IMG/VR virus record: IMGVR_UViG_3300037235_000042
Location: 1 to 64,000 of that record
Strand: one strand, 5' to 3'
DNA from: a virus
DNA: 64,000 nucleotides
Shown here in pieces: positions 9,077 to 33,399 of the stretch. The notes below the pieces were generated by a model. That model was not told where the DNA came from. It saw only the letters and a list, made by a program, of their open reading frames with translations, and ran no database searches. Within the stretch, counting starts at the first letter, position 1. Each line of letters starts with the position of its first letter. The position numbers and the translations under genes are program-made.

Positions 9077-12000
9077 ATGACCCTTTTACCAAAACCTTCC
9101 GAATGCCAGTCCTGTGACCTCTACGGCTCCGGGATGGGCTTTTCCAAGCCCGACGGTACGGGAAGTCTTGGGCTCATGGTGATGGCAGAAGCCTTAGGCG
9201 AGGAAGAAGAGAGAGACGGCAAGCCCTTACGCCCGTACGCTCAAAGTGGGGCGATGTTCGAACGGCTGCTCAAAATGTGCCGGTTGTCCCGCGATCAGTT
9301 AGTTATCTATAACACTGTTAATTGCCGTCCTCCGAAGAATTGGTTAGAGAAGGCTCCATGGGAGTTCAGCGCGATCTCCCACTGCCAAGTCCACCGGCAA
9401 CGCGTGATCGACCAGTTCAAGCCTCGGGTCATTCTAGCTCTCGGCAACGTCGCCACTCGGACCCTTACCGGAATGGCCGGGGAGAAACAAGGGGTGATGT
9501 ATTTACGCGGATATGTGCTCCCGGCTCTCCAGGGCCACAGGACGAATAAAAAACCCTGCCCAGACTGTCTGGATCAGGTTAAAAAGGGATGCTTCCTGTG
9601 CGACGGGACCGGCTGGATCGATGAGCAATCGCCCATTTATAGCCAGATCTACGTCGTTCCCACGGTCCATCCTAGTTTCATTCAGCGGGGCAAGAAGAAC
9701 TTCATCCCCGTCGCCACTTACGACATTCAGTTAGCACTCAGAACTTCAGACCTGATCCTCCGTGGTCAGAAGCCAACGAGGAAGTCGGTTCAATACATAA
9801 CTAGGGCGACCCTCGACGAAGCTCGGTCGTTCTATCTCAAGGTTAAAGACAGCCCGAACGTTCTGGTCACCTATGATATCGAGACCCCGAACTCCGCTAC
9901 CGAGGACGAAGATAAACGGGGCTCGATCATGGAAGACGAAGAAGATGAAGACGCTCCAGCGAAGAAATATCCCGAGGACTACTCCCTCTCAGCAGAAGAG
10001 TACGTTATAACCCAGATCCAGTTCTCTATCGCCCCGCAGACCGGGATCGTGTTTCCGTGGGAAGGCGAGTTCATCAAGATTGCCAAACTTATACTAGCCC
10101 TGCCCAACCTGAAAGCTGGCTGGAATTGCTTCGCTAAGAATACGTCTGTACAGATGGCTGACCGTAGTTGGAAACCAATTTGGCAAGTACAGATTGGAGA
10201 CTGGTTATCGTCTGTGAATAGTCAAGGCAAGATTTGTGGCCGTCAGGTTACACGGACGTTTCATGCCCAAGATAGTCGGCCTTGGATACGTGTGCAGGTA
10301 GACGGTGCCTACAATCGGGGAACGGGTAGATGGGGATGTCCTGGTGTTGTTTGTACCTTAGATCATGAATGGTTTTTATCAGATGGTTCTAAACGTATGG
10401 CCTACGCTTTACGTCCGGGAGATAGAGTTATACTACCTTCCCGAGGGTCCGAAGATCTGGTTCATGGGACGTTGCTAGGAGATGGCCACGCCAATCGCAA
10501 CAATTCCTGTCGTTTGCGTTTCTCGCAAACTAATCGGGCTTGGGCTCAGGCGAAGGCAGATAACTTCGGAGGGACAGCCAAACCAGCTAAAATCAGTCGA
10601 GGAGGATATCCTAATAGGAGCACTCCTTGGTGGGCAGAGACAACTATTCCTTCCTACTGGAGAAGGATATTCTATAACGGCAAACAGAAGTTGTGGATAG
10701 CTCCCCCTTCCATGAAGGCTCTAGCAGTTCTTTATGGTGATGATGGTTGGATCAATAAGGGTAAGACAGCTTCTTTCGCGCTGCATTCCTTCAAGCCTCA
10801 ACTAGAAGAAATAAAGGCATGGTTCACAGAACAGTTTGGTTCTTGTGCTATTTTTCGTGAAGGTGAATTACGACTCCATGTAGGAAGCAGTCGAAAGTTT
10901 TTTGAGTCCATTGCGTGTTTCTTGCACCCAAGCGTTCAATACAAGCTTCCGGTCGAATTCCAAGGTCGCTATAACAATTGGCTCAAGGAACAAGTTCCTC
11001 AAATTGGAGTTGTGTTAGGTACCGAACCCGTTCGGCCTAGAAAGAAAGAAACTAATCATAAATACTGCCTAGAGGTTGACGACACTCATCGTTTCTTTAC
11101 TCGGGCGGGTCTGGTTTCGAACTGCTGGGATTTTGACGATCCCCGGTTGCGGTCGAACGGTTGCGTTATAAATGGGCCATCGGAAGATCTGATGTGGAAG
11201 TGGCATCACCTGCAACCGGATCTACCAGCCGGACTGCAGTTCGCCTGTTCATTCTTGGGGATGGACTATCCCTGGAAGCATCTAGCGACGATGGGGGATA
11301 TGGGACAGTACGGGTGTGCGGATGTCGATGCTCCGCAGAGGGCTTATCCACTGTTAACCTCTGCGCTGAAGGCCAAGAGGATCGAACGGGGATACGAGAG
11401 ACATATCCGCCGGCTCGCGCCGATCCTGTGGGCAGCAGCGGATCGCGGAATTCCTGTCAACCGGGAGAAGTTGAAGAGTTTTGAGGACAAGATCACCCTC
11501 GCTCAACAGGAACTAGCCGACCAGAAGATCAAACCTAAAGTCCAAGGAATGGACCTCGGCAACGTCGAGCCCAAGGGAGGCTTCAAGCCTACTAACACGG
11601 GGAAGGTTCGCTCGGAAGAGTTGATGTCGCTAATCAACTCCGGCAAAACCTTCGATGAGATCTCGCAGATAGTCCACCGGAATAAAGAAGGCGATTCCTA
11701 CCGTTACCTCCAGAAAGAGTTCGTCGAACCGCAGAAGGTTGATCTGTTCGAGGGGAATTTAGTGTCAGACCCGGTCGCGGCTCCGGTCGTTAGATGGTGT
11801 CGGCAGTTCGACTTCAATCCTGGTTCGGCCAAGCAGATCATGGCCTATATGGCCGCGAAGAAGCATCCCATCCCGACCGCGTGGAAGACGGACAAGCCGA
11901 CTACGGCCAAGGAGGAATTAGAAAGGCTGGCGAAGAAGGTTAAGGATTCGTTCTACACGGATATTCTGGAATATAGAAAATTCGACAAGATGATCTCTAC

Positions 12001-14065
12001 CTATTGTGTAGGATGGCGACCGAAAGAAGACGGTTGCGTTCATACGACGTGGACGTTCCGGCCAGCCATAGGCCAAACCTCTACTACAAATCCGAATATT
12101 CAGAATTGTTTTTCGGACGACACAGAAATTCTGACTAAGCGTGGTTGGGTAATGTTTCCTGACTTATTGGAAACTGACTTGTGTGCTCAATGGACCTATG
12201 GTGGAACTGTCATATTCGGATCTCCGGAACGGGTAATAAGACAGTCCTACAATGGACTATTGCACTATATAACGACTGAAGAACAAATAGATATTGCAGC
12301 AACACCTAAGCATAACTGTTTGTTACAGGATCGTAAGACTAGTCGATTCTTCAGCGTCCCTGCCATAGACTTCAAGGCTGATGCTCGGCAGATTCAAGCT
12401 GGGATATACGTAGGAGGTAACGCTCATTATATTGAGGCCCAAATTGCGCTTATCTGTGCCCTTCAAGCTGATGGTTACGTAATGCCCAAGGTAATCGACA
12501 AGAAGGGCCGATCTCGGGGCTCTGGGGGAGCATACGATTTCTTTTTTGCTAAGGAACGTAAGATTGCTAGATTCGAACGTTGTTTGAATGAACTCAATAT
12601 TCCTTATAGGAAGGTTCAACGCTTCGTTAATACTACTCCCAGAAATCGCCTTCCAGGCATGCGTTTCTATATCGCTCGGAAGGACGTCCCAAGCTGGTGG
12701 CAGGATAAGAAATATTTTGGGCCGTGGATACTTGACTTAACTCGCGAATCTTTGGACTATTTGGCGGAAGAAATTTGGTTCTGGGATGGTTGTTCAGAAC
12801 GTCGAAGTATGTACTCATCTAGTGTTAAATCCAATGCGGATTGGGGCCAGATCATTACTATCCTGTCTAACCGTCGAGCCAAAGTTAGAGTGTACGCAGG
12901 CGAAGGAAATCGCAATGATAACTGGCAAGTTGACGCTAGTCTACATTCCTATTCTCTAACGACTAACTTGAAGAATGAAGCTAGACCCTACAATGGCATG
13001 GTCTACTGCGTAACTATGCCTTCTGGGACCATCATAGTAAGACGTAATGGAAAAGTTGCATTTACTGGAAACTGTCCAACGCATGTCGGCTTGGCTGAGG
13101 AATTCCGCGATTGTATCGAGGCTCCTGCTGGTCATCATATAGTCGAACTGGATTACAAATCGTTCTTCGTCATCACTATGGGGTTTGAGGCGAAAGACGA
13201 ACAGTGGATCCGGATGGGAAGGATGGATATTCATTCCTATCTGGGAGCCTACGCGTTACATCTGCCAGAACGGGACCGGTTGATCTCGATGCCAGATGAT
13301 GAACTACGCGACCGGCTGAGCTGGATCAAGAAGAACTACCAACACGAACGGGATTATAAGTGGAAGCGTGCGGTGCTCGGATATAACAACGGTCTAGGCT
13401 ATCGTAAACTCTACCATCAGCATCAGGAATATTTCTCAGGAGAGAACGAAGCTAAACAACTCCTGCAGACTCTAGACGCACAATTCCCTATCGCCTGTGC
13501 CTGGAGAGAAGAAGTTATCCACCGTGCGCAACGGGATTACAGATTGGTCTCCCGACATGGCTATCACAGATTATTCCATGACGTTCTGGTCTACTGGGGC
13601 CAGGGAAAGATTGAAGACGCTGTTCGCCGAGGAAGGAAAATTCCTCCCGTCTGCAAGATCTGCAAACAACGTCATGAGAACGGAGAAGAAGCTGAACAGG
13701 CTAAGGCGTATTTAGCGGCTAACAACGCGTTCGGTCATATCAAAGACGCTATTATTCGCGCCAGCGATCAGGACGAAGGCCCATGGGATAAGGAACGCTA
13801 TATGGCCTCGTGGCTGGGCCGAGCCGGGTTCTGCAACACCATTCACGACTCTATAGTCTGTATCATGCCTGATTCGTTGATCGATCAGGCTCTCCCGGCG
13901 ATCTATAACGAAATGGTCAAGCCTTCTACTATCTTGGTTAACGAGGTCGCGCCGGATGGGCTGGTATGCGATGTTGAAGCCAAGATCGGTAAGACTTGGA
14001 AGAAGAAAGGGCTAGGGTCGATGGAGACCATTTCCATCCACACCGGCATGAGCGTTACCGTATGA
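9077..14065 (+). CDS. polA: family-4 uracil-DNA glycosylase :: 3'-5' exonuclease :: family A DNA polymerase, with two inteins
   Basis: UDG: CQSC.L, AEALGEEE, NTVNCRPPKN, HPSF; ExoI YDIET, ExoII GWN/CWDFD, ExoIII YGCAD; Pol: FNPGS.KQ, PNIQN, motif A ELDY, motif B K....LG, motif C IHDS. Confidence 0.93.
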   Translation: MTLLPKPSECQSCDLYGSGMGFSKPDGTGSLGLMVMAEALGEEEERDGKPLRPYAQSGAMFERLLKMCRLSRDQLVIYNTVNCRPPKNWLEKAPWEFSAISHCQVHRQRVIDQFKPRVILALGNVATRTLTGMAGEKQGVMYLRGYVLPALQGHRTNKKPCPDCLDQVKKGCFLCDGTGWIDEQSPIYSQIYVVPTVHPSFIQRGKKNFIPVATYDIQLALRTSDLILRGQKPTRKSVQYITRATLDEARSFYLKVKDSPNVLVTYDIETPNSATEDEDKRGSIMEDEEDEDAPAKKYPEDYSLSAEEYVITQIQFSIAPQTGIVFPWEGEFIKIAKLILALPNLKAGWNCFAKNTSVQMADRSWKPIWQVQIGDWLSSVNSQGKICGRQVTRTFHAQDSRPWIRVQVDGAYNRGTGRWGCPGVVCTLDHEWFLSDGSKRMAYALRPGDRVILPSRGSEDLVHGTLLGDGHANRNNSCRLRFSQTNRAWAQAKADNFGGTAKPAKISRGGYPNRSTPWWAETTIPSYWRRIFYNGKQKLWIAPPSMKALAVLYGDDGWINKGKTASFALHSFKPQLEEIKAWFTEQFGSCAIFREGELRLHVGSSRKFFESIACFLHPSVQYKLPVEFQGRYNNWLKEQVPQIGVVLGTEPVRPRKKETNHKYCLEVDDTHRFFTRAGLVSNCWDFDDPRLRSNGCVINGPSEDLMWKWHHLQPDLPAGLQFACSFLGMDYPWKHLATMGDMGQYGCADVDAPQRAYPLLTSALKAKRIERGYERHIRRLAPILWAAADRGIPVNREKLKSFEDKITLAQQELADQKIKPKVQGMDLGNVEPKGGFKPTNTGKVRSEELMSLINSGKTFDEISQIVHRNKEGDSYRYLQKEFVEPQKVDLFEGNLVSDPVAAPVVRWCRQFDFNPGSAKQIMAYMAAKKHPIPTAWKTDKPTTAKEELERLAKKVKDSFYTDILEYRKFDKMISTYCVGWRPKEDGCVHTTWTFRPAIGQTSTTNPNIQNCFSDDTEILTKRGWVMFPDLLETDLCAQWTYGGTVIFGSPERVIRQSYNGLLHYITTEEQIDIAATPKHNCLLQDRKTSRFFSVPAIDFKADARQIQAGIYVGGNAHYIEAQIALICALQADGYVMPKVIDKKGRSRGSGGAYDFFFAKERKIARFERCLNELNIPYRKVQRFVNTTPRNRLPGMRFYIARKDVPSWWQDKKYFGPWILDLTRESLDYLAEEIWFWDGCSERRSMYSSSVKSNADWGQIITILSNRRAKVRVYAGEGNRNDNWQVDASLHSYSLTTNLKNEARPYNGMVYCVTMPSGTIIVRRNGKVAFTGNCPTHVGLAEEFRDCIEAPAGHHIVELDYKSFFVITMGFEAKDEQWIRMGRMDIHSYLGAYALHLPERDRLISMPDDELRDRLSWIKKNYQHERDYKWKRAVLGYNNGLGYRKLYHQHQEYFSGENEAKQLLQTLDAQFPIACAWREEVIHRAQRDYRLVSRHGYHRLFHDVLVYWGQGKIEDAVRRGRKIPPVCKICKQRHENGEEAEQAKAYLAANNAFGHIKDAIIRASDQDEGPWDKERYMASWLGRAGFCNTIHDSIVCIMPDSLIDQALPAIYNEMVKPSTILVNEVAPDGLVCDVEAKIGKTWKKKGLGSMETISIHTGMSVTV
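10127..11122 (+). mobile_element. intein 1 (332 aa) with LAGLIDADG-type endonuclease, in the ExoII motif
   Basis: N|CFAKNT.V.MAD start, TLDH block B, GTLLGDG and LYGDDG, YCLEV..THRFF..GLVSN|C end. Confidence 0.9.
12107..13072 (+). mobile_element. intein 2 (322 aa) with probable LAGLIDADG endonuclease, after PNIQN
   Basis: QN|CFSDDTEILTKRGW start, TPKH, ALQADG, WFWDG, YNGMVYCVTMPSGTIIVRRNGK..TGN|C end. Confidence 0.9.
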
Positions 14066-24400: not shown

Positions 24401-25245
24401 ACCACGGTGCCGTTCGGTGGGCTAACCGGCAAAGTGGCGAAGGTGACAGCGGATCCGGGAAGGATCAACCCGTCCGAACCACCGAAGGTGAAGAACCCTG
24501 GATTGGTGCTAGTGTCTAGTTGAGGATTGCTGTTCGTCAAGGTCGTCCCGCTGGCGGCTTGGGGGAAGACTCCAGTGCTCAGCCCGGTGATCGGCTGAGG
24601 CGTACAGGTCCAGTTGGTCCCGTTCCACGAGGGGAGACTGGGCGTCGGACAGCCTTGAGGGAGTTGATAAGCGCTCAGAATAGCTAGAGTTCCACTGCCG
24701 GTTATGGTCCCGCCCGATAATCCGGTTCCGCCAGTAATACTGGTAACCGCCGGACAGCTGACTTCTTCAACGCCGCCGGAAGGATTAGTCCATGTGCAAC
24801 CGTTGGCGTTGGTGAAGTTCAGCGTAGGTTGCGTAGCGTTAGGTGTGCTATTGGTTTGGATAGAAATATTGCCAGTGGCGTTCTGTGCAGTGACAAAATA
24901 GGAATAGACAACGTTATTCGTAACAGTGATCTGAACTATGTAATTTCCCGGAGAGACAAAGAAGCTGTAATTTGCGTATTGGTCTGTAGTATAAGGGTTG
25001 GACGCAGCTTGGGTTAACCCAGCATCTAGGTACAAGGATGCCAATGGGGAACAGGGAGTTCCAGCTCCACCAGTGTAGGAACATACCCGAACGCTAGCGA
25101 AAGCTGCAGGCCCACCTGAACCGACTGGAGGTGGTGGTTGGATCACTTGACCGCTGATTGCTCCGGATTGGCCGAACGCTGCTGAGGACACCAGTAGTAG
25201 CAACAGGATCAGCTGGATCTTTGAGCTTTGACGCAGAGCGAGCAT
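21403..25245 (-). CDS. large fibre/spike-like protein with signal peptide, lectin-like and beta-helix regions
   Basis: 1280 aa, G/T/S/N- and Cys-rich; tailspike-type N-terminal head (SLYLDAGLTQAASNPYTTDQYANYSFF); LLLLLVSSAAFG/Q. Confidence 0.7.
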   Translation of the reverse strand: MLALRQSSKIQLILLLLLVSSAAFGQSGAISGQVIQPPPPVGSGGPAAFASVRVCSYTGGAGTPCSPLASLYLDAGLTQAASNPYTTDQYANYSFFVSPGNYIVQITVTNNVVYSYFVTAQNATGNISIQTNSTPNATQPTLNFTNANGCTWTNPSGGVEEVSCPAVTSITGGTGLSGGTITGSGTLAILSAYQLPQGCPTPSLPSWNGTNWTCTPQPITGLSTGVFPQAASGTTLTNSNPQLDTSTNPGFFTFGGSDGLILPGSAVTFATLPVSPPNGTVVQCLDCNPSCTASTNTTPGFLVPQAVTGQDCGYYNGMWGGLINGSGGTGGGGSSSKTFPNIDDATSTWGICYIGMCSGGSPGGNVAPASHIFSEISTTPPCADGSCIEFSETSISTGSGNQTNILATYKTHDSQAQSAAIVAQSFTVSVYNPGNWGNASALEFDQFIFVSAPPGQTCSTYTCTEFMFGSQCNGGFWDIFQQGTAGVGGAWITTPVTCALLNNTPGWHTITENVHRIAGDTNGCTNPVNHNAYPCEYYDSITVDGINTLFNTGPTSAGGLPSGWGSDTGFQFQIDIAGNSKTVTEYLDSASYTEYTALNTVSGLPTASASGQVPAANGPGTTYFAQSKQAFDVRDCTVALCGTLPVATADFAAALATLQSNLGSGTIIDARNPGAFASTGGTYCPGGGAFQQCVFSNSDISAGLGQGFQSVILWGNYWIITSAPWTTTVGAHQWIGVTSGASKGPIGTALIVCYAPQNSGLTCGPAGFPQFPTTATRSVGGPFLDGSPYTTGTISVASGNNPTVTGVGTTWTSAMVGGYLTSCATSSSHGATCPNATNACSALITAVNSTTSLTVSGNWGSEGNNPGVVCPTGVAGLTYALYHPTAIPILSWAGGVSNDAYQNNSFGSQLQDFFIDPEGMPLAIGLLLNGAQERDGFHRIHVAMNSGNFNNGGIIGCTPPGTGSNCTSEVATASIMAGMMTDRTFNYTGEAGPAHYSTGTMDITTGPSYIASSSGVLPYPFAFEGYDILRGNIGDSGNTAFNQGTVTGKNLSLLETFYDCGWYDGFLRIEIDNAHCEFTERGLDLGQTNGGNGYVVRNVSTANQGGATNVAPVHFYSGVTGSMADNISVIGNSQKILQDDSPGGQTITAAGSGCPAAGCTVVHYEQSGAFNGTPGLWQVGGIQSTGSQFTASGCTNGTLVGGAANGSFKTGVSGACTVVITIGGANPITANNGWHCDGADETTAAGNGIYQSAHSTTTGSLTLPAGNVSGDVISFSCEAY

Positions 25246-25478
25246 ATGATCGGATTCTCTTCCCCTTCCCGGAAGACCTTGTCGCGGAACCTACATTCCC
25301 CAATAACCAAATCCCTCCCGCACGGACAGCTCCCCTTCTGCTTCCGGTACTGCTCCATCAACCGTTCGTTCTTCGCCGTCCACCCAGCCGGGCTGTGCAG
25401 AAAAGTTTCCTGGCCAAATCTCCTTTTCGTCTCGCGAATCTTCTTGGGCGGAGTGAACCTGACGCGATGAGCCCTCAC
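25209..25478 (-). CDS. small basic Cys-containing protein
   Basis: CPC..CSLC; upstream of the fibre gene. Confidence 0.4.
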   Translation of the reverse strand: MRAHRVRFTPPKKIRETKRRFGQETFLHSPAGWTAKNERLMEQYRKQKGSCPCGRDLVIGECRFRDKVFREGEENPIICSLCVKAQRSS

Positions 25479-25662
25479 GAGTGGAAGTTTAGCGAATGGA
25501 ACAGATGGAAGACAGGAGGAATGAAAAATTATGTTGACTTCTTGGTCAGGAATATGACAGGATACAAAACGTCACCGACCAGTAGACCGTACGAAGCGGC
25601 GAGGGGAGGGGAGGTTTTCCAGCCGTCACCCTGGAAGACCTCCCCCGGCGAGTTCAAGTTAA

Positions 25663-25761
25663 ATGATCAATTTTACGAAATCCTCGACTTCCGTTCTATC
25701 AAGCTTAAGTTCAAGCTTGCGACTCAGTCCGTTGTCCTCGCGACTGAGTTATTTATCCTAA
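25663..25761 (+). CDS. leader peptide A (32 aa, Ser/Leu/Tyr-rich) before the Leu/Ser/Tyr tRNA array
   Basis: MINFTKSSTSVLSSLSSSLRLSPLSSRLSYLS*: 13 Ser, 7 Leu, 1 Tyr; ends 9 nt before tRNA-Leu. Confidence 0.75.
   Translation: MINFTKSSTSVLSSLSSSLRLSPLSSRLSYLS
25721..25756 (+). terminator. terminator-like hairpin inside leader A
   Basis: GACTCAGTC / GACTGAGTT stem followed by ATTTAT (weak U tract). Confidence 0.5.
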
Positions 25762-25770
25762 GCACAATTT

Positions 25771-25855
25771 AGGCCCGTGGGCTAATAGGGAATGGCAGAC
25801 CTTTCAGGCTCAAAATCTGAGACCCTTGAGAGTTCAAGTCTCTCCGGGCCTACCA
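25771..25855 (+). tRNA. tRNA-Leu(CAA), short variable arm, enlarged D region
   Basis: AGGCCCG/CGGGCCT-A-CCA; TCAGG CT CAA AA TCTGA; GAGAG TTCAAGT CTCTC. Confidence 0.8.
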
Positions 25856-25861
25856 AGTTTA

Positions 25862-25877
25862 GATCTTTGACAATTTA
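25862..25877 (+). promoter_or_regulatory. rrn boxA-like antitermination element
   Basis: GATCTTTGACAATTTA; shares TCTTTGACAATTTA with the - strand copy near 29774-29790. Confidence 0.6.
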
Positions 25878-25880
25878 AAC

Positions 25881-25971
25881 GGAGAGATGGGTGAACGGGA
25901 AAACCGCCTGTTTGCTAAACAGGAGCTACCCGAAAGGGGGCACGCGAGGTCAGCACTCGCTCTCTCCGCCA
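25881..25971 (+). tRNA. tRNA-Ser(GCT)
   Basis: GGAGAGA/TCTCTCC-G-CCA; CCTGT TT GCT AA ACAGG; long variable arm. Confidence 0.88.
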
Positions 25972-25972
25972 C

Positions 25973-26067
25973 GGTGGGATGGACGAGATGCTAAAGTCAC
26001 CAGTCTTGAAAACTGGCGTGTCCGTCGAAAGGCGGCACCGGGGGTTGAATTCCCTCTCCCATCGCCA
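25973..26067 (+). tRNA. tRNA-Ser(TGA)
   Basis: GGTGGGA/TCCCATC-G-CCA; CCAGT CT TGA AA ACTGG; long variable arm. Confidence 0.9.
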
Positions 26068-26095
26068 AGTTTAAAAATGGTATACTTCCGCCATT

Positions 26096-26584
26096 ATGCC
26101 CATGGCTACACTTGAACTGCAGAGAGCCTATATGGCGGAGTGGTACTTGAGGAAGATCAAGCCCCGTCGCGAGAAATGGATAAAGGAAAATGGTCCTTGT
26201 CGTTGCTGTGGGTCATGGAAGAATTTGGAGGTTGATCACAAAGATCCATCCCAAAAAGTTCATCATCGTGTATGGTCATGGTCTGAATTACGAAGACAGG
26301 AAGAATTAAAAAAGTGTCAGGTTCTTTGTCACGACTGTCATCTTAGAAAGACTGTAGTAGATTTACAAGAGATGGATATCAATGCAGATAAACGCAGAAT
26401 CTGTCCTCCCGGAACGGCTTGGTGCTATCGAGGTAAACATTTCGTAGAAGTCCGGTGGTTCAGCAGTGATGCTGCCAAACACGATGGTTTACAGGACGAA
26501 TGTAGAATATGTCGAAGTAAACGAAGAAGTCCAAATGGTAAGCTCGGGCGTGTTGAGATGTTGGGAATCTCAAGCTGGCCGTAA
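26096..26584 (+). CDS. HNH endonuclease inserted in the tRNA array
   Basis: CRCCGS..NLEVDHKDP..K...ELKKCQVLCHDCH. Confidence 0.88.
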   Translation: MPMATLELQRAYMAEWYLRKIKPRREKWIKENGPCRCCGSWKNLEVDHKDPSQKVHHRVWSWSELRRQEELKKCQVLCHDCHLRKTVVDLQEMDINADKRRICPPGTAWCYRGKHFVEVRWFSSDAAKHDGLQDECRICRSKRRSPNGKLGRVEMLGISSWP

Positions 26585-26634
26585 CCCAGTGACGCTTTGT
26601 CGTCTCGGTCGTTCGATTCGATCCACGCCCACCA
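26546..26634 (+). tRNA. tRNA-Tyr(GTA)
   Basis: GGGCGTG/CACGCCC-A-CCA; GCTGG CC GTA AC CCAGT; variable arm; TTCGATT. Confidence 0.85.
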
Positions 26635-26639
26635 AAAAT

Positions 26640-26716
26640 GCCATCCTGCCGCAACTGGAAGACGGACGTGGTTGAGGTCCACGGTTATGTGAGTTCGAGT
26701 CTCACGGATGGCACCA
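26640..26716 (+). tRNA. tRNA-Leu(GAG), short variable arm
   Basis: GCCATCC/GGATGGC-A-CCA; CGTGG TT GAG GT CCACG. Confidence 0.85.
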
Positions 26717-26726
26717 TTTTTTCAGT

Positions 26727-26803
26727 GCCGGAGTATGCAAATAGGAAAAGCAGCTGAGCTTAGACCTCAGTGTTTGGAGGTTCGATTCCTCTCTCCGGTA
26801 CCA
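26727..26803 (+). tRNA. tRNA-Leu(TAG), short variable arm
   Basis: GCCGGAG/CTCCGGT-A-CCA; CTGAG CT TAG AC CTCAG. Confidence 0.85.
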
Positions 26804-29767: not shown

Positions 29768-29773
29768 AATATT

Positions 29774-29790
29774 AAATTGTCAAAGAACAA
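29774..29790 (-). promoter_or_regulatory. rrn boxA-like antitermination element
   Basis: TTGTTCTTTGACAATTT between the promoter and the first Y-hybrid. Confidence 0.65.
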
Positions 29791-31595: not shown

Positions 31596-31631
31596 AGAAT
31601 TCCTTTCAAGTTGGATTAAGTAGATCAGATT

Positions 31632-31664
31632 AAAAAAGCCTTCTAGTTTTTAAGTAGAAGGCTT
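31632..31664 (-). terminator. intrinsic terminator (attenuator C)
   Basis: AAGCCTTCTA-9 nt-TAGAAGGCTTTTTT. Confidence 0.85.
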
Positions 31665-31692
31665 GCCGTTTAAACCCGTCAAATCCTTCCAA

Positions 31693-31794
31693 CTACCCAC
31701 AACCTTCGCCCTGAAACCACGCTTGGTGTAGTCCAAACGGAGTCTTGGTCACAGTCGGGGTCGTAGGTTGATCGGAATGGATTGGTGTTCTCAT
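31693..31794 (-). CDS. leader peptide C (33 aa) before the 15-tRNA array
   Basis: MRTPIHSDQPTTPTVTKTPFGLHQAWFQGEGCG*; lies between a promoter and a terminator; contains all 11 amino acids of the downstream array. Confidence 0.8.
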   Translation of the reverse strand: MRTPIHSDQPTTPTVTKTPFGLHQAWFQGEGCG

Positions 31795-31817
31795 GTTCTG
31801 GTAACTCAACAGGAAGA

Positions 31818-33174: not shown

Positions 33175-33251
33175 TGGCGACACCGGGAGGACTCCAACCT
33201 CCACCCTTCCGCTTAACAGGCGGCTGCTCGGCGCATCTCAGCTTCGGTGCC
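33175..33251 (-). tRNA. tRNA-Asn(GTT)
   Basis: GGCACCG/CGGTGTC-G-CCA; GCCGC CT GTT AA GCGGA. Confidence 0.85.
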
Positions 33252-33283
33252 AAAATATTAAAGGTCCCCATCTCTGAGGACCC
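33252..33283 (-). terminator. intrinsic terminator (attenuator B)
   Basis: GGGTCCTCA GAGA TGGGGACCT TTAATATTTT directly before tRNA-Asn. Confidence 0.75.
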
Positions 33284-33318
33284 TTTTTGTCTCCACTCCA
33301 ACAGTGATAAAGAGACAG

Positions 33319-33390
33319 TCAGGTCCCCAAACGCATATTGCGCTTCACTTTAATGACGCGCCTAGCTGAGTTGGGGTTGATCAATCTCAT
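33319..33390 (-). CDS. leader peptide B (23 aa) before the Asn/Met/Val/Ile/Lys/Arg array
   Basis: MRLINPNSARRVIKVKRNMRLGT*; core RRVIKVKRNMR consists only of array amino acids; ends in TGGGGACCT, identical to the terminator 3' arm. Confidence 0.82.
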   Translation of the reverse strand: MRLINPNSARRVIKVKRNMRLGT

Positions 33391-33399
33391 GGTTTGGGT

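Follow-up and report, generated by a model that had tools for sequence, protein, structure and literature searches.

Classical leader-peptide attenuators are represented by trpL, hisL, leuL, pheL, thrL and ilvL, as well as by pheM for pheST. Phage tRNA genes are usually seen either as helping with codon usage or as standing in for host tRNAs that defence nucleases have destroyed. Papers from the 1980s on the tRNA region of phage T5 reportedly mention short ORFs among the tRNA genes. A full-text literature search turned up no publication describing leader peptides that control tRNA genes. Among published accessory tRNA arrays, the closest regulated case is the trn operon of Anabaena, which is responsive to the translation state and placed under the repressor TrcR (PMC8421152, PMC10272220). 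With respect to leaders in which the terminator lies within reach of the translating ribosome, tight coupling across the pyrL leader prevents the terminator and upstream stalls raise termination, according to a passage of PMC5021804 that cites Roland et al. 1988. The ribosome represses terminators that lie inside ORFs or no more than ~27 nt from a stop codon (PMC4824070).

Our analysis concerns the DNA preceding the first of three tRNA arrays in IMGVR_UViG_3300037235_000042, a 98,271-bp record with direct terminal repeats, of which the first 64 kb (64,000 nucleotides) constitute the window referred to below. This genome is that of a tailed soil phage, encoding a terminase, a portal, a primase, a Dda-like helicase and a family-A polymerase that appears to bear an intein. 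Its ~30 tRNA genes form three arrays in the interval from 25.7 to 33.3 kb, which also contains a Ro60/Y-RNA module, and no tRNA genes were found in the remainder of the 98-kb genome beyond the window. Directly ahead of array A is a short ORF, leader A (Table 1), that we interpret, at a probability of roughly 0.5, as a translated regulatory mini-ORF that makes transcription of the array depend on how ribosomes progress along Ser, Leu and Tyr codons. A first-pass annotation, made from the letters alone, had given the translation of this ORF, and we found it to be exact to the last residue (MINFTKSSTSVLSSLSSSLRLSPLSSRLSYLS*); a direct reading of the sequence likewise returned the claimed five of six Ser codons (TCC, TCG, TCA, AGC and AGT, with TCT missing) and five of six Leu codons (CTA, TTA, TTG, CTC and CTG, with CTT missing), plus one TAT. 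The distance of 9 nt that it had proposed between the leader stop codon and the array also holds, given a corrected start for the first tRNA gene: ARAGORN begins tRNA-Leu(CAA) at 25779, i.e., 8 nt too late, since the true 5′ end, judged from the Rfam alignment and from the acceptor stem (AGGCCCG/CGGGCCT), is at 25771.

Table 1. Features of the leader A region and of tRNA array A (positions in the window).
Feature	Position	Strand	Description
Sigma-70-like promoter candidate	25221–25250	+	TTGAGC-18-TATGAT; sole candidate for array A; overlaps the start of the divergent 1280-aa gene
C-rich, G-poor tract	25255–25400	+	C 36–42%, G 15%; C-G skew at the 99.7–99.9th percentile of genomic 78-nt windows
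Frame-0 ORF	25467/25521–25772	+	101 aa from ATG 25467 (JGI) or 83 aa from ATG 25521 (Logan); spans the whole leader ORF
hp0	25608–25645	+	Perfect 15-bp stem, 8-nt loop; −31.8 kcal/mol in context; pair probability 0.97–1.0
Segment alpha	25646–25660	+	Candidate antiterminator arm; can pair with 25714–25731 (hp1 3′ arm plus hp2 5′ arm)
Leader A ORF	25663–25761	+	32 codons plus TAA; 13 Ser, 7 Leu, 1 Tyr; translation MINFTKSSTSVLSSLSSSLRLSPLSSRLSYLS*
hp1	25700–25719	+	CAAGCTT/AAGCTTG, 7 bp, 6-nt loop; −6.9 kcal/mol; pair probability 0.85–1.0
hp2	25721–25758	+	Terminator-like 11-bp stem with one bulge (25721–25750), −14.6 kcal/mol; U-rich tail TATTTATCC; pair probability 0.89–1.0
Array A	25771–26803	+	Order Leu(CAA), Ser(GCT), Ser(TGA), HNH ORF, Tyr(GTA), Leu(GAG), Leu(TAG)
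tRNA-Leu(CAA), array A gene 1	25771–25855	+	Rfam alignment 25771–25852, 34.3 bits; encoded CCA, enlarged D loop, short variable region
boxA-like element	25864–25880	+	TCTTTGACAATTTAAAC; between tRNA-Leu(CAA) and tRNA-Ser(GCT)
Array A, remainder	25881–26803	+	Ser(GCT), Ser(TGA), HNH endonuclease ORF 26096–26584, Tyr(GTA), Leu(GAG), Leu(TAG)

Of the systems named above, the E. coli pyrBI (pyrL) and pyrE leaders share with leader A an ORF that runs through the terminator hairpin, with its stop codon past the U-tract; in the phage, the hp2 stem (25721–25750) and tail (25751–25758) are inside the ORF and the stop codon occupies 25759–25761. Because a ribosome must pass through the hairpin, the geometry is pyrBI/pyrL-like and not trp-like. 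What is sensed differs, however: at pyrBI/pyrE it is UTP-dependent polymerase pausing, with pyrimidine genes as the targets, whereas leader A presents Ser/Leu/Tyr codons, tRNA genes and a weak U-tract, and the stretch upstream of hp2 (25663–25720) has no long U-run of the kind associated with NTP-sensitive pausing at pyrL. Classical attenuators resemble leader A in combining a short upstream ORF, enriched in the relevant amino acids, with a terminator-like hairpin. Leader A would moreover be multivalent (Ser+Leu+Tyr) like the thr and ilv leaders, and would control a component of the translation apparatus like pheM-pheST. It departs from the classical plan in that its stop codon is not upstream of the terminator, it has no robust 2:3 antiterminator, and its targets are tRNAs rather than biosynthetic enzymes or synthetases; within the same phage, leader B has the classical layout in our folding model, and leader A does not. 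The leader-ORF/Rho attenuators (tnaC, mgtL/corL and toiL-topAI) offer a further parallel, namely a C-rich, G-poor tract upstream of a small ORF on which a translating ribosome could keep Rho off, although the Rho site of leader A is putative and its ORF is mildly C-rich. As for the Anabaena trn operon, the likeness to array A is that of an extra tRNA array; control there is by a repressor, with no leader peptide, and not in a phage.

The composition of leader A is linked to the Ser/Leu/Tyr array that it precedes to an extent far exceeding chance. Of the 68,791 open 32-codon windows across all six frames of the 98-kb genome, none other has as many Ser, Leu and Tyr codons as leader A (21 of 32, vs 19 in the runner-up), and not one of 20,000 dinucleotide shuffles of its DNA reached 21. 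The binomial enrichment score of 7.1 is the genome maximum, and the signal belongs to a single frame of the DNA (20/31 codons, vs 6/31 and 8/31 in the other two). To take location into account, all 15–60-codon ORFs of the genome were scored for the amino acids of the array, and the presence of an equal ORF upstream of a random place was counted; the empirical P values for leader A were 0.0008, 0.002 and 0.0036 for upstream stretches of 150, 400 and 700 nt, respectively. This match is at the amino-acid level only, because the share of leader codons matched to phage tRNAs equals the prediction from genome codon usage, and standard wobble leaves the four TCC and two TTA codons, six of the 21 cognate ones, without a phage tRNA. 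A codon-level match of the leader to the phage anticodons was set aside, doing no better than the amino-acid-level match.

The hairpins inside this ORF make up the second part of the case. Both hp1 and hp2 were correctly located within the coding region by the first-pass annotation. The first hairpin, hp1, is a possible pause hairpin. The stem of hp2 is terminator-like, but its U-tract is interrupted (TATTTAT), a consensus terminator scan makes no call, and the tail is weaker than the tails of B and C. When folding was constrained by a ribosome footprint, hp2 formed with the A site at codons 1–16 and was blocked from codon 17 onwards, the terminator pairs numbering 8/11 at codon 17 and zero from codon 18. 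An earlier proposal that a stalled ribosome would exert control by occluding the 5′ arm is thus borne out in the model as far as this block is concerned; it is weakened by the absence of a Shine-Dalgarno sequence at ATG 25663. The sign of the effect may be the opposite of demand sensing, since the pyrL and terminator literature predicts more termination when the ribosome lags. We concur that leader A holds no convincing antiterminator: no classical one was found, and the weak candidate pairs segment alpha with 25714–25731. The duplex has a computed energy of −15.2 kcal/mol, vs −15.6 for the terminator arms, and ranks at the 2.3rd percentile of genomic 20-mers, which is not significant after multiple testing; codon 12 is the one A-site position at which the minimum free-energy fold takes it up. 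Ahead of the ORF, hp0 is the longest uninterrupted hairpin of the 98-kb genome according to a genome-wide hairpin census. Its 3′ end is 17 nt before the leader ATG, no U-tract follows, and it may act as a processing site, as a pause or by sequestering GGAGG runs.

No Shine-Dalgarno sequence precedes ATG 25663, as is also the case, in usable form, for 24 of 56 long phage genes; the ATG sits within a 73% A+T island directly after hp0. A split Shine-Dalgarno sequence brought near by hp0 was rejected, the 17-nt spacing after the stem being too long, as was coupling to an upstream ORF via TAAATG, the frame of which has no start codon between 25558 and 25660. Promoter scans gave no promoter within ~400 nt upstream of leader A; a stricter TTGACA scan, which recovers the promoters of B, C and the Y-RNA operon, gave none closer than the candidate in Table 1. 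A promoter beside the leader ATG was likewise discarded, as the TTGACT at 25534 has no usable −10. Following the promoter candidate at 25221–25250, the order of elements is (i) the C-rich tract, (ii) a purine-rich stretch, (iii) hp0, (iv) a 17-nt spacer, (v) the ATG, (vi) the ORF with hp1 and hp2, (vii) the tRNA and (viii) the boxA-like element; no ATG occurs between 25250 and 25467. It is possible that the C-rich tract is a putative Rho loading site in the 5′ leader, or else the 5′ UTR of the divergent gene on the opposite strand. The first-pass annotation suggested Rho access to a pyrimidine-rich ORF; the truly C-rich stretch is this tract (25255–25400), the ORF itself being only mildly so (91st percentile).

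The boxA-like element TCTTTGACAATTTAAAC, which we take to resemble the E. coli rrn boxA, has a second copy at 29770–29786 (−), just behind the Y-RNA operon promoter; 0/100 shuffles give two copies, as seen in the window. This arrangement suggests Nus-type antitermination of phage stable-RNA operons, with the difference from rrn antitermination that the element is here inside a phage tRNA array. Since it occurs only after the first tRNA, the leader would be the stretch exposed to Rho. Rfam covariance models, run on 25560–25880 with E values up to 10, matched the tRNA model only, with no T-box or other curated cis-regulatory RNA. GACTSAGT and TCAAGCTT were considered as a repeated regulatory or operator motif and dismissed, being local and without genome-wide signal.

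Overlooked in the earlier annotation was the frame-0 ORF that spans the whole leader, and with it comes another reading of the locus. Therein, the real gene would be the frame-0 ORF, encoding a small orphan phage protein and transcribed together with the tRNAs, as with the 115-aa gene before array C; the Ser/Leu-rich ORF would be its untranslated +1 frame, and hp1/hp2 would provide a 3′-end processing or termination signal. We judge this unlikely, even though two pipelines (JGI and Logan) call the ORF as a gene and small genes also adjoin arrays B and C. Codon statistics are on its side: over the leader region, frame 0 has a codon log-odds of 8.6, vs 6.6 ± 4.2 for in-frame windows of real genes, and the leader A frame has off-frame-like statistics (−7.3). 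Given the leader peptide, a frame-0 score this good has P = 0.047 and frame 0 staying open has P = 0.24. In shuffles, an open upstream frame containing an ATG has P = 0.03–0.15 (0.03 for an ATG at least 47 codons upstream). Against these values, the 3-periodic Markov score of frame 0 is 0.05–0.07 per codon, where genes score 0.18 ± 0.09 and shadow ORFs −0.06 ± 0.12. The frame-0 product has no homologue among 1.84e9 representatives, no Pfam or PHROG match and no paralogy to the small genes at arrays B and C, and its structure predictions reach an ESM pLDDT of 0.36 and an AF2 value of 61 (pTM 0.29). Neither start codon is well served, with AGGAGG 1 nt from ATG 25521 and GGAG 13 nt from ATG 25467. 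The longest perfect hairpin of the genome, hp0, would be in the middle of this gene, and its TAG stop codon, which overlaps nt 1–2 of tRNA-Leu(CAA), would be cut by RNase P at 25770/25771. With the frame-0 protein held fixed and its synonymous codons resampled, the +1 frame reaches 21 Ser/Leu/Tyr codons with P = 0.00065; frame 0 therefore fails to explain the composition of the leader. Both frames may matter. Should the leader ORF be no more than an orphan gene read in another frame, there would be nothing unusual about the locus.

Nor does it seem probable that the tRNA precursor has here a structured 5′ leader that is not translated, with hp0–hp2 as sites of RNase III/E/P processing, of pausing or of constitutive partial termination and with the Ser/Leu/Tyr content arising by a coincidence aided by in-phase palindromic repeats. 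Three strong local hairpins, together with the lack of a Shine-Dalgarno sequence and of a nearby promoter, fit this description, and so do the repeats: the arms of hp1 and hp2 are doubled in frame as direct repeats (AAGCTT twice, 12 nt apart; GCGACTSAGT twice, 21 nt apart), by which Ser-Ser-Leu and Arg-Leu-Ser are each counted twice, and the motifs are local. Even with the repeated arms counted once, however, 16 of 26 codons are still Ser/Leu/Tyr, and the bias extends to codons outside the hairpin arms (7–12, 24–26 and 30–32). A coincidence would also have to account for a bias that is frame-specific (0/20,000 shuffles) and situated at the single array-matching place in 98 kb (P 0.0008–0.004), as well as for the similar leader match at the two other arrays of the genome. 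Finally, that the ORF should encode a small Ser/Leu-rich peptide acting independently of tRNA supply, and only incidentally placed before the array, is very improbable: the ORF is open, its ATG has an AU-rich context and micro-ORFs are numerous in phage genomes, but the sequence is of low complexity and has no homologues, composition and place coincide at P ~0.001, and the ORF is packed with RNA hairpins.

Were leader A to function as a translated regulatory mini-ORF, RNA polymerase starting at an upstream promoter, perhaps that at 25221–25250, would transcribe hp0, the AU-rich start, hp1, and hp2 with its U-rich tail. Without a ribosome in the vicinity, hp2 would fold and transcription would end at ~25755–25760, i.e., before the tRNAs and the boxA-like element at 25864. 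With a ribosome following closely behind the polymerase, or parked on codons 17–32, hp2 would not form and the polymerase would enter array A. A stall before approximately codon 12 would thus raise termination, which amounts to positive feedback, while a stall at codons 17–32 would lower it; the latter stretch contains the CTG, the two TTG codons and the single CTC and TAT codons, plus further copies of the Ser codons. Because the stop codon is beyond the hairpin, a freely translating ribosome would cover hp2 as well. In a Rho-based version, which we hold to be equally possible, the ribosome would shield the transcript until the boxA-like element is reached. The sign of control would hinge on polymerase pausing and on the identity of the limiting tRNA; by the simplest physics of this geometry, feedback would be positive and not homeostatic.

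The two other arrays bear on this interpretation, as their leaders are each enriched for the amino acids of their own array and depleted for those of the others. Location-aware P values were 0.002–0.011 for leader B and 0.011 for leader C, and Fisher combination of the 700-nt values for leaders A, B and C gave P ~5e-5. As a control, eight inter-tRNA gaps were scored in two unrelated phage arrays (reached via relatives of the HNH endonuclease); the top ORF score was 2.9, vs 7.1 for leader A, so the enrichment statistic does not fire everywhere. In footprint-constrained folding, leader B (33250–33397) forms no terminator with the ribosome at codons 1–18 and forms it at codons 19–24 and the stop codon; the model is validated by this behaviour, which is that of a classical attenuator. 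For leader C (31628–31812, −), the terminator forms at every ribosome position in the footprint-constrained minimum free-energy model, and any antiterminator there would have to be kinetic, i.e., invisible thermodynamically. One may tentatively picture, at slightly less than even odds, three isotype-sorted arrays that are each gated by a mini-ORF written in the amino acids of its own array, constituting a ribosome-read tRNA gauge, with B operating classically and A through occlusion or coupling, in that the ribosome itself, and no antiterminator helix, would compete with the terminator hairpin. If true, a leader that reads the decoding of Ser, Leu and Tyr would be the first case of attenuation-type control acting on tRNA genes, and it would show phages using the ribosome to sense the state of the tRNA pool. 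The placement of a hairpin inside the ORF would, moreover, permit a clean test of demand sensing versus a positive-feedback commitment switch.

Relatives of the phage were sought through several of its proteins and sequence patterns. TerL relatives in IMG/VR (L005–L054) are at most 56% identical (38–56%, in genomes of ~90–100 kb), with the closest one, at 74% identity, found in Logan only, where contigs encode terminases of 70–74% identity (proteins P0010 and P0011). Among 15 records searched for tRNA genes, 13 have none and the other two carry 1 and 2; since the TerL relatives are mostly without tRNA genes, the tRNA/Ro60 island looks like a recent acquisition of the lineage. No kin were recovered from IMG/VR or the JGI metagenomes using the 83-aa ORF, the TROVE protein or exact tRNA/leader DNA patterns, the neighbouring 1280-aa protein is an orphan for which no homologue was found, and blastn against cultured phages returned nothing useful. 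The only pattern match was in an unrelated 7-kb viral contig (L002:81–106, −), which carries the exact last 26 nt of tRNA-Leu(CAA), including the CCA, and no tRNA. To judge from its sequence, this copy looks like an attachment-site fragment, implying that the 3′ half of the phage tRNA-Leu(CAA) matches a bacterial tRNA-Leu.

With regard to the tRNAs of array A, the long variable arm typical of bacterial tRNA-Leu is missing in all three Leu tRNAs (25771–25855, 26640–26716 and 26727–26803). The D loop of Leu(CAA) is enlarged by ~10 nt, and Leu(GAG) and Leu(TAG) have ordinary 74-nt class-I shapes with A73. The HNH endonuclease ORF (26096–26584) inside the array shares sequence with the 5′ part of tRNA-Tyr (26546). 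Relatives of the endonuclease (37–49% identity) also occur within tRNA arrays of unrelated large phages (L056 and L062), a distribution that would be expected of a homing endonuclease directed at tRNA regions. Elsewhere in the window, the 1662-aa polymerase ORF (9077–14065) has matches to a UDG-superfamily domain, a family-A DNA polymerase, Hint and LAGLIDADG, and probably contains an intein.
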